This document shows positions 33,001 through 39,000 of a DNA stretch of 64,000 nt, piece by piece. The stretch's first letter is position 1, and the number at the start of each line of letters is the position of its first letter. The stretch comes from Psilocybe cubensis (taxonomy: Eukaryota), in the NCBI GenBank assembly GCA_017499595.2, contig CM039004.1, forward strand, positions 434,001-498,000, in the 5' to 3' direction. A program made the position numbers.

Positions 33001-36000
33001 ACAGGCATGTTTTCTTTCTGGAGGCCGGCACATCATTTCTAGCCACGCAAGTGTCGAAATGAAAATCAATATATGGAGAAGATTGTATGGTACATTGCTT
33101 CGTTTTGCTTCGGTTGTTCTGTTCCTTCAATCGCAGCAGCATTATTGCGGTGTAATTTGTCTCGACGCGTAGGCTGATTAGGATCAGAAAGATCGTGCAA
33201 TTCCGAGGTTGCAGGTAAATGTTCAAGTTCAATACGTGGAAACCACCATAATTGGTAGTGCATGGTTTTGTGGAACTGAAAAGACCGTTAGGCCGCAGAG
33301 ATGATGATAATAAAGAAAAACCGTTGAACGCTGACGCGGACGACTCACGTAACGCGGAGGGCTGTGCCTTTTGGCCTCACTCGAATTTTCTCCCTCAAGC
33401 CTGACCTTAGAGCTACGACGAGGACGTGGCTTGGTTCTATGCAGTAGTCAATTAAAGTCTACTATCGTTAACAGCGCTGCGGCATTGAACCTATTACATT
33501 CAATCTCCGAGTCCCACGTCTCTTCAAACAGTCTTCAAATCAGGTTTACGGAGTCGGGTTCAGTCGGTGAGTGATTCTGAAAGTACAATTGTCTCCTGTG
33601 AGAGAGAACCTTGCGTCTTTATGTAAGTTCTGTCCCCTTTTGATACTGTTGACTCAACTTGAACCTACTGGAATTTTCGTAAGCATGAGCTTAGGAGCAT
33701 CCCCAGAGCCCCCGCCGTGAACACCATTGATGATCCTTGCCTTGTCGGATTGAATTATCCCGTTCATGCAGAAGTTAAAAAGCAGGCTTAGTAGTTGCTG
33801 ACCTATCAAATTTGTAGTCAATGATATCGAGTCACCGGGAGGTTCTATCCCGAAAACCATCTATATTCTATGTGTCAGCGTGCATTTCAGAGATACAAGA
33901 TGATTTAAAACATTCTAGAATCTAATAATCGGAAATCCAAACTCTTACTTCCATAAGAATAAGCAATTTAATATCATGCCCAATTATTTCGAACTACAAA
34001 GCGAGACTACAAGAAGTTCTCGACCCACTGATGACAAGCCAATCAGCTCTTTTTTGGAGGCTCTAGACGTCTCCTCAAACTGCATTCGACAACCCTCCGG
34101 CCATTTGCAATACCACTCGACTCCAACAAATCGTCATCCTGGTCGAAGTAGAGGCTCCAGACTCCAGGAGACTCCTCTAATGCCACGAAACCTTCCCATC
34201 CCTCCAGTACCATGGCACTCTGATCTGCCGTCCAATCCCAAGGACCGTGAATGTGATTCATGCTGGCTGTCTTATTTCCGTATTTCAGTTCCAAAGTATC
34301 GTCGTCGGCATATATCCAGTTCAGTTCCGGTGGATCACGGGAGATTGTGCTGACAAGTGATAGAGGTTTGTTCCCAACTGGGTACTCAAGGTAGAACCCG
34401 GAGAAAGGATGACCATCACTGAATATTCGATATTCAGGATCAGCTACGTCGAGATATAACTTCATTCCAAGAAGTGGTAAGTAACTTAAAAATACCATCT
34501 CAGGCGGGAACACTCACTTTCCCTTTTCGCAGGACAACGATCTTACCGTGAACCAGCTTTGCAGGAGATAGTCCTGGGGATGAGACGGGCATTGAACATT
34601 CTGCCACCAGATTGAACTTGGCGAGCCTGGGATCGGATTTATCTGGTTCGGCCGCCTTTCCGCCACCCCCACCTTGCTGTGAGCTGTTGACTCCTTGTGA
34701 AATGCCAACTACTGCTGTAGAAGCGGCTACTGCAGCCAAAGGGATGGACACAGAAGCAGCAGCTACACCGACAATACCAATGACCTCCATGGTTTTGTGA
34801 TAGTGAATTAAGCAACGTCAAATCGAGAGAATAGGTTCCAACAGTATCCAGCAAACGAAATGCAAATTATGCAGTATGATGGTACTTGATGTCATTGTGA
34901 TATCATATCCATAGATATCAAGGTACGGTTTATTTTAGAAATTTGCTCGGGTCAGCTTGACCGTGCGAGAAAATAAGAAAAACAACAAATGCACCACGAG
35001 GTCCTGCAACTTGCAAGGCTGAGTTGACACGAGGCGACTTGTGGAGTTACATTGTGCGAGTCAATCATGACGACAAGTTATTCAGTTGGTTTGGAGGTTG
35101 GTCAATGCAAAAAGAGACGCTTGACATTGAATAACTTAAAAATAATTTGAGCAGTCGAGCTTTGACCTTCGAGAGTTGGGGTTCAATCTACTCGACACTA
35201 ATTACAATCAATTAAAAGGCTGATCGACGACGGAAAGGAATTATAAATTCATTTATTCCGCATTATAATGGCATTGATTGGCCAGGAACAATCTAGAAGT
35301 TTGTGTTCCTGGCACGTGGGCTTTCGTCAGGCGCTTATTTTTTCTCGGTTATTTTGAATGCCTGGACTTGGATCATTGGGGAAGAATCTCCACGAGCCAC
35401 CAATGACCCACAGAATTTGGCTTGTAGCGTAATCGTGGAGATTATGACATCTTCGTTTGTCGTTGGAATGTGATACAAATACCTGAATAGCTGCGCTCCT
35501 AGCTGCCTTTCTTCAAATTTCACTATACCATTAGCCCCGCTTAATTTCTACCACATCCACGACGACTGCTATGTCTGACGAATCACGCTCTCGATCCGCC
35601 TCCCCAAACCCCATGGAACAGTGGGAGAACGACGACAACGCACCCCAATCACCACAACCTCAGCAGCAACAAGCTCCAAGCCGCCCAAGTCGCCGCCGCG
35701 CTCAGCCACAGCCACAGTCGCAGCAGCAGGTTCAACAGTACCAGCAGCCCCAGCAGCAGGGAGGAGGAGCCAATCAGCTTGCACAGCCCGCCGGTCAAGC
35801 AGGCCAGCTCCTCGGAAATACTCTCGGCCAGGTTACGGGCGGCGGCCAGCAATCCGGAAGCGGCGGCAAGGATACCCTCAAGTTGCGACTGGATTTGAAT
35901 CTCGATGTCGACGTTCAAATCAAGGCCAGAATTCATGGCGACGTAACTTTGTCTCTTCTGTGAGTTTTTTTTCTCTTGTTCTTCGAATGCTAGTTATCAA

Positions 36001-39000
36001 ACTGCAAACCCGAGGCAGTGACTGAAATGTACAACCGACTTAGTAACTAGAAAGCGGCCATTGGAGCGGCAGAACACGTCACTGGAAGAAGCCATTTCAG
36101 TTAACTTAGAGACTCATAATCACCTTCAAGATACTTCATGACCTGGAACGAACATTATTACCGTATTTTACTTGTTTCGAGATTTGAAATACCATTTGGA
36201 AACGACTCATAATAATTATGGACATTTTCGTACCTAACGATGACTTCAAATTAAGTGTGTGTGCCATACCCCATGAGCGCTGAGCTTTGAGGCGTGTCAA
36301 AGCGAAGTCGATTCCTTTGATAAATCTGAACTACAGTACTATGCTTTCACCATGTTAAAAATGGGATGTACTACCCGGAGTAGATACAGTATGATATCAC
36401 TTGTGGTAAGATATGGCGTCATCTCCTTCTCTGAAAACAACGGCTCGACGTATGAGTAAGATGTCATGTACGTGGGCGAGGACAGAGCACGGATTGTGTA
36501 CACAATGCCTCATTAAATAATGCTTGGAGTAACCCATAGGGAAATTAATTCGAATTATGTGTTACAGGCTACAAATGTCCAATAACGAATAGTAAGTAAG
36601 TCCATCGGCTCATGCGTAAAGTCGTCAATGGTTACATGCGATGCCAATAGTATTGCTCGTAACATGAACTCTCTACCCGCTAATGTGTACAGAGAAATAA
36701 TATCAGTGACATCTGGGCTACGTTCGGTCTAGAAACAAAATTTGACTCACAATAGAGAAAGGGTGACGTCTCCATGAATCCTTGCCTTTATTTGAACATC
36801 GACATCGAGATTTAAATCGAGCCTGAGCTTTAATGTATCCTTTTGACCTCCTCCTGGCTGAGGCTGGCCACCTCCCATCACCTGCCCAAGTGTATTTCCA
36901 AGGAGCTGACCTGCCGGGCCAGCAGCTCCTTCGAGAGGGTGACCACCGCTGGGAATAAGACCTTGTTGCTGTGGTGGCTGTTGCTGTTGTGGTGGAAGCT
37001 GCTGAGGGCGGTTCTGACGCCGACGCCGAGAAGGAGGTTGAGATGGTGTCGATGGCAGAGAATCAGCCTGCATTGCAGGTTCTGGAGAGACGGATCGAGA
37101 GCGAGATTCGTCGGACATTGTGGCTCAAGTTTCTTGACGAAGTCTTAATATGGAGAAGTAGGGAAGAGATTGAAAATTACATGACTTATGTACACTATTT
37201 CTGAGGAATTCTAAGGAGAGAATGATTAATTCGCGAGGAGCAGGCAGAGTGATGTCATCTTTTGTCTGTTCCTGAGTCCTTGATACGTAGTGGAACCGGC
37301 GTCTATATTCAGTACTCCAGCAGACTGGTTAACATACCACATGGTCCTATACCTCACAAACTGGAGCTATGAAGTCATATACTATCTTGCGTTTTCGACG
37401 GTCAATTCTGGGCGTCTGATGTCATTGGATATATAGCTTCAAGTAGAAAGGCGTTCCAGTCAAACAGATTATTCTTCAATCTTCGAAGTCAGAAGCACTG
37501 CACCAACCGCACACATAGCCATGTCCGTCTCTGACCCATTGATTCGCTCTGATTCACTCTCTCTTATCACCGTCATGTGCCATAAAATTTCGGACGCAGC
37601 ACGATTCTACGTCGGCACTCTCGATTTCAATATCAAATGCGACGAGGAGATCAATGGAGAGCGCTTCGTCGTCGCTACACCACCCAATCTCGTCGAGTTT
37701 ACCCCACAGGCCTCTCTGAGGTTCAAAGAGGCGAAAACAGAGAGGGATAAACGAGCCGTGGGAAACCAAGCTGGGGACGGTGTATTTCTTCAAGTCGAGA
37801 CCGATTGCTGGAGGCAGGTCTACGAAAAGATCAAAACGATGGGCACCACAATTTTGGACAAAGAGCCGAGAAAGGGAAAGGATTATCAAGCGATTACGGT
37901 GTTGGACTCGTTGGGAAATAAAGTAGTCATTGTCGAGAAGACGACCACGACTCTAGGGAAGGTTTTCACCAAGGACATTGGACGGTAGATATAGTAGGGT
38001 TGTATGACGCAGAGGACTTTCCACATTATTTAGTGTACTACTTTCTCACTATCGCCAGATACTCCTATCGTCTCACGAATTTTGTATCATGAATATTAAT
38101 TAGGACTCACGCCTGCTTAACGTAGTCCCTGTGACACTTGATGAGCCTCTCTACAACACAAACACCACTGCCTAATGGTGTTGCACTGACTTGCATTGTA
38201 CCATACATAGCCGTTTTAAGTCATGGTGGAGCCTTAGTAAATCAATTTGTTGCTCACCGTCTTGTTCGCTGAACAGCTTCTGTTACCTTCTGTGTGGTCA
38301 AGTTCTACATATCCATTTCAGACACGAGTGTATGCAGAGGAAATTTACAATTCGATTTGCAATGTCTCCTGGGAAACTGGTCTGTGCGTGTCTGGAATCT
38401 GACAGGTGACTTGGCAGTGATGCAGTGCATGATACCCTCACGAAATTCTTCTAGAATAACCATGGTCAAACCGAGAACAATGACGCGCTGAAGTAGGACA
38501 TTCATTGTCTCGAAATTTTAAGCAGATGGACGTGGGGTAACTGAAAATATTGAGGCGATGATGTGATGAAGAGTTTGGGGAGATACTCCATTCATGACAG
38601 ATATATCGTCATGCCGTACATCCTTGACGATCAGTGTCCAGACTCGCAGTGTCAAGGGCCTGCGCGAACTGAATGGCTCATGATTCCGCCCACAGGCGCG
38701 CCTCAAGCGCATGCAAACGGATTCCAATAATGAACGGGTGCGCCACGGTGTGATGTCATGTTAAATGTACTGACTACATATAAAGGGTTGAAAGAGGGTG
38801 GGATAAGGGCAGAATATCATACAGCATGTCCGAAATCGCAGAAAACTTGGGAATCAACACTCCGAACCAGTCTGTGCACGGAGAGACTCACGGCGATCAA
38901 TCGCAGAAGCAATCTCAAACCGACAAGGAGCTTGCTTTGCGCCTTTCTTCGCTCATCGAGGATGCCAACTCTCGAGTCACACCGTTGTGCCGCATGATTC

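Follow-up and report, generated by a model that had tools for sequence, protein, structure and literature searches.

A 64,000-nucleotide stretch of the Psilocybe cubensis genome (GenBank assembly GCA_017499595.2, contig CM039004.1, positions 434,001 to 498,000 of the forward strand; hereafter the window, to which all coordinates refer) carries two convergent genes, here called A and B, that encode small proteins with disordered bodies and the same C-terminal tail of alternating aliphatic and polar residues. Both are real genes of an expressed type and belong to an ancient family that spans the fungi and for which we found no prior description, and the gene beside A, here called NB, encodes a beta-trefoil protein whose pairing with the family is conserved. 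Our tentative reading, which we place a little short of an even chance, takes the tail for an amphipathic beta module with balanced charges that serves for assembly or docking and pairs by its strands with itself, with the trefoil protein encoded next door, or with both. New here are the scale and age of the family, an intron at the very end of its coding sequence, and the pairing with an unstudied beta-trefoil family; the initial annotation of this region included neither the terminal intron nor the trefoil neighbour, and both change what the functional unit is.

The open reading frames (ORFs) of gene A (35571..35963, forward strand, 130 amino acids) and gene B (36747..37118, reverse strand, 123 amino acids) lie tail to tail and are paralogous, as had been proposed, with products that are 60% identical (BLASTP, E = 6e-30). 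All 123 residues of gene B equal the first 123 of the public model P0007 (Psilocybe cubensis JR316_0007692). Each protein has an S/R/P patch at residues 5-14, SRSRSASPNP in A (35583..35612, forward), where the family-conserved pattern marks a candidate phosphorylation site, and SRSRSVSPEP in B (37077..37106, reverse). This is followed by a basic patch, SRRR in A (residues 40-43; 35688..35699, forward), as picked out by family column counts, and SRRRR in B (residues 30-34; 37017..37031, reverse). The MSDESRSRSxSP start and the SRRR patch, which the initial annotation had described as common to A and B, are indeed so, and both are also features of the wider family. At the C-terminus, the two proteins have the same 31 residues (KDTLKLRLDLNLDVDVQIKARIHGDVTLSLL), which form an amphipathic, charge-balanced, predicted beta segment at residues 100-130 of A (35868..35960, forward) and at the end of B (36750..36842, reverse).

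Over the 93 nucleotides that encode this segment, A and B differ at 20 positions spread over 16 of the 31 codons, and every one of the 20 differences is synonymous. With about 22 synonymous sites at a proportion of differences (pS) of 0.90, near saturation, and none of about 71 non-synonymous sites changed, the identity of the tails reflects purifying selection and excludes recent gene conversion. The earlier claim of an identical motif kept by purifying selection despite differing codons therefore stands; both of the codon strings quoted for it are present in the sequence, and the tail is conserved family-wide too. In the strain runs across the region there are four coding differences, two in A (35621 and 35680) and two in B (36863 and 36968); all four fall in the disordered bodies and none in either motif, in a small sample.

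The family extends well beyond the window. A word-indexed search returned 61 relatives at E ≤ 1e-3, a HMMER profile search 921 representatives at E ≤ 1e-3 and 454 at E ≤ 1e-10, and a second profile search 989 representatives at E ≤ 1e-5. The named members belong to Agaricomycetes, to numerous classes of Pezizomycotina, and to Dichotomocladium, Acaulospora and the chytrid Spizellomyces; all but one are called 'hypothetical' or 'uncharacterized'. A JGI label, 'acyl-CoA synthetase', on P0067 was considered and set aside, since nothing that we found supports it. When A and B were scanned against Pfam, no family model matched, and only sub-threshold, composition-driven hits to DUF2076 and PepSY_TM appeared; precomputed Pfam assignments were empty for every small family member listed. 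With the motif protein as query, a PDB sequence search gave no match and a protein atlas search returned only 'hypothetical protein' clusters with scores below 0.9. No paper containing the motif strings or any of 12 family locus tags was found in a search that did not extend to supplementary tables.

Conservation was assessed in an alignment (A3) of 98 sequences, comprising 96 of 172 proteins and the two window proteins, each with an M start, at most 170 amino acids and an end 0-3 residues past the motif; P0012 and P0013, which are fragments, were excluded. The proteins are small, with a median length of 130 amino acids, and presumably cytosolic. They have four parts: S-R-S-x-S-P-x-P near the N-terminus, an RRR patch, a linker of low complexity (G/S/Q/P) and a 28-residue C-terminal tail. 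After an initial M-S, the first patch is kept at S7 (55 of 79), R8 (63 of 81), S11 (65 of 79) and P14 (81 of 87); Pro36, which lies between the two patches, is conserved in 86 of 90; and the arginines are conserved at R41 (84 of 93), R42 (79 of 93) and R43 (63 of 92). The linker, rich in G/S/Q/R/P and with about 12% hydrophobic residues, is poorly conserved, the body being the least conserved part of the protein. Within the last 28 positions, seven residues are invariant in all 98 sequences, drawn from several phyla (L107, N110, G123, D124, L127, L129 and L130), and seven more are at least 90% conserved (L105, R106, D108, L109, L111, A119 and H122). Among 132 distinct tails, N110 and G123 do not vary at all, and the last position is Phe in nine. 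This places the tail among the most constrained short segments that could be expected in a disordered protein.

The tail consists of an alternating segment, L-K-L-R-L-D-L-N-L-D-V-D-V-Q-I-K-A-R-I, then H-G-D, then V-T-L-S-L-L, and all its odd positions from 103 to 121 are hydrophobic. One of the two faces is wholly aliphatic, and on the other K104, R106, K118 and R120 balance D108, D112, D114 and D124, so that the tail shows the alternation of hydrophobic and charged residues with balanced charges that is characteristic of ionic self-complementary peptides. The hydrophobic moment at 180 degrees is 0.98, a value reached by none of 2000 shuffles (mean 0.18, maximum 0.76), and the moment at 100 degrees, the helical angle, is only 0.09. 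The strict hydrophobic/polar alternation seen at the outset is thus a perfect beta-type pattern.

One alternative places function in the Q-rich bodies, which would then act as prion-like or condensate-forming parts and make the tail secondary. The view of both bodies as prion-like and Q-rich held for gene A, whose best 80-residue stretch contains 31 Q/N (at least about 30 per 80 residues being the threshold for a prion-like domain) and whose body is 31% Q+N. It did not hold for gene B, with 19 Q/N in its best stretch, or for the family, in which 2 of 98 members have a body of at least 30% Q+N and the median is 13%; a Q/N-rich prion-like domain is hence not a conserved property. Proline, which disfavours amyloid, makes up 11-17% of the bodies. 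Selection acts on the tail and the two short patches, not on the Q tracts, and the bodies are where all four strain coding differences lie. We consider it very improbable that the Q-rich bodies are the functional core. The initial interpretation is supported in part, for a conserved amphipathic module of beta-type pattern but not for a prion-like body.

The short, C-terminal and beta-prone character of the tail also raises an explanation in which it is an amyloid signalling motif or prion-forming domain of the type associated with NOD-like receptors (NLRs), such as HET-s/HRAM, PP, sigma or PUASM, templating a cross-beta fold from receptor to effector. Its roughly 28 residues, alternating hydrophobics and G-D pair near the end fit such a motif, and PMC9815663 describes HRAM-like motifs of Agaricomycetes that start with hydrophobic residues and carry a G[DN] pair C-terminally. 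However, no effector domain (HeLo, HeLo-like, PNP_UDP or SesA/SesB) precedes the motif, and the region before it is disordered in the predicted model. Beyond A and B the 64-kb window has no further copy of the motif, no NLR gene was seen in the parts of it examined, and among 84 longer proteins that carry it, the two that run into DUF676/NLR-like sequence both do so after intron read-through. Neither A nor B has a match in Pfam to an amyloid-motif family (HET-s_218-289, NACHT_sigma, Ses_B), even at E ≤ 1. In a parallel in-register amyloid, the nine charged residues on one face would be expected to stack like on like. The deep conservation of the tail, at 1-3 copies per genome, further contrasts with the variable amyloid motifs that number dozens per Basidiomycota strain according to PMC9815663. 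Amyloid signalling of this kind is scarcely tenable here.

The gene next to A, NB (34043-34790, reverse strand), provides a concrete candidate partner for the tail. Its first exon (34518..34790) is an ORF segment of 91 amino acids, in which 28 uncharged hydrophobic N-terminal residues are followed by a G/S/Q linker, and ends at the donor AAA/GTGAGT (slashes here and below mark exon or codon boundaries). A predicted 58-nt intron (34460..34517, GTGAGT..AAG) restores the frame into LYLDVADPE..., which aligns with homologs, and the second exon (34043..34459, 138 amino acids and a stop) encodes a predicted fungal beta-trefoil domain. Queries with PF28325-bearing proteins P0269, P0250 and P0272 found NB in the window by tblastn with E-values of 9e-27, 6e-25 and 5e-18. 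In the protein atlas its best cluster is 'Beta_trefoil_fun' (score 0.93, 208 shared features, 100% of members with PF28325), and all ten of its ten best family-bearing matches carry PF28325. The PF28325 part of the fused public models described below shows the pattern LYLD..F.G.Y..YP...LVS...DPP.LNWIY.D.DT...YG.....H..GPW.W, and NB can be called PF28325-like, its placement in that family coming from similarity to members rather than from the Pfam gathering threshold.

The predicted fold is consistent with this assignment. The model of NB exon 2 alone has a predicted template modelling score (pTM) of 0.69, and the 50 VIA-align matches listed for it, at Z 5.8-4.1 (all below 8), are almost all beta-trefoils, among them MoErs1, macrocypin, Symfoil, ricin-B lectins and Kunitz inhibitors. 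Foldseek with the same model gave no match at E ≤ 0.001, the best being IL-18 at E 0.17. We found no paper naming PF28325 or Beta_trefoil_fun. Ascomycete relatives of NB begin MVIGLLAI..GV..AQKKQN, and a hydrophobic start followed by basic residues suggests, by the positive-inside rule, that NB is anchored in a membrane by its N-terminus and has its trefoil on the cytosolic side.

The adjacency of trefoil and motif genes is real, and recurs in 18 of 80 related environmental loci in addition to the window; of the 25 genomic-type loci that extend 1.5 kb or more upstream, 15 have it. The two genes are head to head in 14 loci (L001, L002, L004-L007, L027, L039, L050, L055, L063, L067, L073 and L078), the same layout as in the window, where 780 bp between gene A and NB (34791..35570) form a putative bidirectional promoter. 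In L011 the trefoil gene lies upstream in tandem, and in L032, L042 and L043 downstream. The paired loci span close Agaricales-type relatives and ascomycete-type subfamilies, and an alignment of the neighbour (A4) was built from 15 of the 18 trefoil-bearing loci, the near-identical L002, L005 and L043 being left out. No description of a pairing between PF28325 and the motif family was found in the searchable literature. Of the 84 longer motif proteins, six have PF28325 upstream of the motif, in public models that fuse both genes; a real two-domain fusion protein was rejected as an explanation, the trefoil ORF of L011 ending in a stop with the motif gene ATG 636 nt downstream. One ascomycete-type contig, L073, holds three genes (442-513, reverse; 1215-1831, reverse; 3028-3099, forward): a motif gene of the '...HGDLELALL' type follows the trefoil gene in the same orientation, and a motif gene of the 'AHIHGDLTLALL' type, which has a far longer, acidic N-terminal body (compare P0309), is divergent from it.

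From the sequence pattern and this gene context, we propose that the tail would be the working part of the protein, in the form of one long, two-faced beta segment, an H-G-D turn and a short return strand. It would be unable to fold alone and would need a partner sheet, as suggested by the lack of an autonomous fold in the monomer model. That sheet could come from other tail copies, with A and B, whose tails are identical, then able to assemble with themselves or with each other much as ionic self-complementary peptides do, or from the cytosolic beta-trefoil domain of the membrane-anchored neighbour, in which case the disordered chain would be tethered to the membrane. The S/R/P and RRR patches may regulate this pairing, probably via phosphorylation. 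In its most specific version, the proposal is of a fungus-wide two-gene module, in which an anchored cytosolic trefoil and a phospho-regulated disordered protein form a switchable beta-sheet scaffold or small pore at the membrane through ionic self-complementary pairing of the tail with itself and with the trefoil; so elaborated, it seems unlikely.

Several observations weigh against a tail that assembles with itself or docks on the trefoil. The AlphaFold2 monomer model, built from the 98-sequence alignment, is featureless, with a mean predicted local distance difference test (pLDDT) score of 57 and no DSSP element (tail blocks 71-73), and no structural model backs beta assembly. Within the tail, covariation mostly reflects shared ancestry, with all variable position pairs scoring high; the top pair is 114-116, and no strand register is picked out. 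The trefoil gene is absent in 10 of the 25 loci that reach far enough upstream, several paralog subtypes stand without it, and the fused trefoil-motif gene models are probably annotation errors. Adjacency of eukaryotic genes can reflect shared regulation without physical contact between the products. Finally, the hydrophobic stretch of NB could be a cleaved signal peptide, which would put the trefoil outside the cell and away from a cytosolic partner.

There are two further explanations of the tail. In one, the tail would be a membrane-inserting amphipathic beta hairpin, several copies of which would assemble into a small beta-barrel pore or a membrane scaffold, perhaps arranged by the trefoil protein. 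In its strict 28-residue alternation, its polar centre and its HGD turn the tail resembles the stem hairpins of beta pore-formers; NB starts with a hydrophobic, probable anchor, and some fungal proteins join a beta-trefoil lectin to a pore-forming module, the Laetiporus lectin matching NB at Z 4.2. Yet the polar face is densely charged, with eight ionic residues, no other pore-former domain and no signal peptide are present, and the rest of the protein is disordered, which makes a pore improbable. In the other, the tail would be a linear docking motif that binds some other conserved partner by beta-strand addition, for example in the manner of the plant EAR repression motif (consensus LxLxL or DLNxxP), which is bound by a TOPLESS-type co-repressor. 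The tail begins L-R-L-D-L-N-L, containing both LxLxL and DLNL; its near-invariant polar residues R106, D108, N110, H122 and D124 would suit a specific interface; and the RRR patch could be a nuclear localisation signal. The 28 conserved residues, however, make a stretch four times longer than an EAR motif, the partner of that motif is a plant co-repressor, TOPLESS, not known to occur in fungi, and the neighbourhood contains no pointer to transcription. Docking of this kind is about as improbable as a pore.

The ends of both genes have an unusual structure. The ORFs of A and B stop at a TGA that lies inside a GTGAGT donor starting at the third base of the last Leu codon. In gene A, the first exon (35571..35959, forward; codons 1-129 and two bases of the last Leu codon), an ORF with homologs in the 61 relatives noted above, would be followed by an 84-nt phase 2 intron (35960..36043, GTGAGT...CTGAA...TTAG), predicted from the sequence and its relatives, and by a micro-exon, T/AAC/TAG (36044..36050), that completes Leu130 and adds Asn and a stop. 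The spliced gene, join(35571..35959, 36044..36050), thus probably encodes 131 amino acids ending in LSLLN. In gene B (reverse strand), family analogy points to a 71-nt phase 2 intron (36680..36750, GTGAGT...CTGAT...TTAG) after the first exon of the ORF (36751..37118; codons 1-122 and two bases), and to a micro-exon, C/GGG/TAG (36673..36679), with the same 7-nt spacing to TAG as in gene A; joining 37118..36751 to 36679..36673 probably gives 124 amino acids ending in LSLFG. Past the donor, A and B have in common a branch-like CTGA[A/T], followed by TGTACA, then TTAG, with a TAG four bases further on. At position 35965, in the T-run at the start of the gene A intron, both DNA-type runs have one base fewer; this homopolymer difference is a strain or assembly difference outside the coding sequence. 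One contig from a run only guessed to be RNA spans 35465-35758 and shows no splice joint.

Relatives carry the same arrangement. In loci L001-L006 there is an intron at the same position with the same signals, and the genomic loci L001-L005 have TTAG/CAACTAG, giving the LSLLN end predicted for A, with which homologs P0008, P0028 and P0029 also end. Across 84 motif instances in the 80 related loci, a donor is found at exactly the same place in 54 (GTAAGT in 23, GTGAGT in 14, GTACGT in 9, GTATGT and GTAAGC in 2 each, and GTAAGG, a cut-off GTAAG, GTAGGT and GCAAGT once each). The other 30 have no donor and end 1-4 codons past LL (N, Q, D, S, DM, DMD, DGM, EG and so on), and these intron-less ends agree with what splicing of same-subtype genomic loci is predicted to give: CAG/CAACTAA, for instance, predicts LLN, and LL-AAC-TAA is observed. 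From this match, the terminal intron is ancient and evidently spliced in relatives, with a micro-exon of 7 nt that adds 1-3 residues. In 42 of the 54 donor-type instances the donor itself supplies an in-frame stop, so that an unspliced message would lose only the last 1-3 residues.

This structure exposes a systematic annotation error, in which the terminal intron makes gene callers add false tails or fuse neighbouring genes. Among 234 motif-bearing database proteins, 99 end at LL, 59 have 1-3 extra residues and 76 have longer tails of at least four residues, 44 of which begin with YV, as read-through of a G/TAYGT donor would produce. The public model of gene B, P0007 (161 amino acids), uses an acceptor 7 nt beyond the one predicted from the family (36672-36750, reverse strand), and its 38-residue tail (EFMLRAIL...), common to no relative, is probably a mis-annotation. 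In models from Exophiala, Fonsecaea and Aureobasidium (P0284, P0287, P0289 and P0294), the motif gene is merged with a gene for the tRNA modification GTPase MnmE/TrmE, probably again by terminal-intron read-through into the neighbour.

On the other side of the gene pair, upstream of B, lies a gene for 155 amino acids (37521..37988, forward) with no Pfam match. Its homologs in L001, L002, L004 and L005 (61-63% identity by tblastn) are directly downstream of the motif gene on the same strand, the gene order there being trefoil (reverse), a single motif gene (forward) and the homolog (forward). From this order, gene B appears to have been inserted, as an inverted extra copy, into a conserved arrangement between A and 37521-37988. 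Two motif genes, in tandem or head to head, are carried by 7 of the 80 related loci. In a tree for dating the A/B duplication, made from 21 hand-chosen rows with tails trimmed at the motif end, 11 of the 18 inner branches were unresolved and the placement of B was unsupported. The read-through tail of P0148 resembles the middle of the 37521-37988 product.

A second conserved neighbour is implied for Sordariomycetes by merged public models, in which DUF3659 follows the motif in 15 of the 84 longer models and in P0215, all from that class and some named 'LEA domain protein' in UniRef, after the late embryogenesis abundant (LEA) proteins. These models (P0241-P0268, P0083 and P0215) come from Fusarium, Colletotrichum, Coniochaeta, Chaetomiaceae and Podospora. 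They bear on the idea that the family consists of hydrophilin- or LEA-like stress protectants, with the disordered body as the active part and the tail merely holding it to membranes or to the surfaces of proteins when cells dry out or form spores. The proteins are indeed small, hydrophilic, G/S/Q/R-rich and disordered, and the merged neighbour would suit such a role. But the body is the part with the lowest conservation, the link to DUF3659 comes from merged annotations in one class, with no match to a DUF3659 gene in the 80 environmental loci, and the idea overlaps with a tail that assembles or docks rather than excluding it. We consider a protectant role unlikely.

Elsewhere in the window, on the reverse strand, are genes for a phosphomannose isomerase (26658-27008), a laccase-type multicopper oxidase (30217-32051) and a GH16 glycoside hydrolase whose long N-terminal region is S/P/A-rich (43579-46104), and, on the forward strand, for a lysophospholipase (PLA2_B; 40456-42699). 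The G+C content rises to 0.61 at 44001-46000, coinciding with the S/P/A-rich part of the GH16 gene, and the AT skew falls to -0.37 at 48001-50000.

The components described here can each be compared with a known system. For the trefoil, the likeness lies between the neighbour gene and PF28325 'Beta_trefoil_fun', and is seen in sequence, language-model features and predicted fold. Q/N prion domains of the Sup35/Ure2 type are resembled by the body of gene A only; unlike in those proteins, Q-richness is no family trait, the bodies are proline-rich, and selection acts on a charged tail, the opposite of a Q/N prion core. The tail resembles NLR-associated amyloid motifs in being short, terminal and beta-prone, such motifs being 17-30 amino acids long and some having a G[DN] pair near the end (PMC9815663). 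It differs from amyloid signalling motifs, which stand behind HeLo, HeLo-like, PNP_UDP or SesA/B domains and recur at NLR N-termini, in having no effector domain and no credible NLR partner.

The closest known systems are the ionic self-complementary beta-sheet peptides EAK16, from yeast zuotin, and ELK16, (LELELKLK)2. According to PMC3045283, ELK16, a 16-mer of alternating Leu and charged residues, drives antiparallel beta-sheet aggregates in cells when placed at the C-terminus of four proteins, which otherwise remain active, and its Ala version EAK16 does not drive such aggregates. Like ELK16 as described there, the tail alternates aliphatic and charged residues with balanced charges, is rich in Leu, Val and Ile, and stands at the C-terminus behind a flexible linker. 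The comparison is one of possible mode of action and not of homology. EAK16 and ELK16 are repeats that were designed or cut out of longer sequences and contain no turn, whereas the tail occurs naturally, is not repetitive, has an invariant Asn and an invariant H-G-D turn within its 28 residues, and is conserved across fungal phyla. If it is a natural self-complementary module, it would offer a simple, testable model of functional assembly that is neither prion- nor NLR-based, as well as a ready-made biological tag; and the two-gene module, if true, would be an old equivalent, made by nature, of the self-assembling peptides made by design, and one that belongs neither with Q/N prions nor with NLR amyloid signalling.

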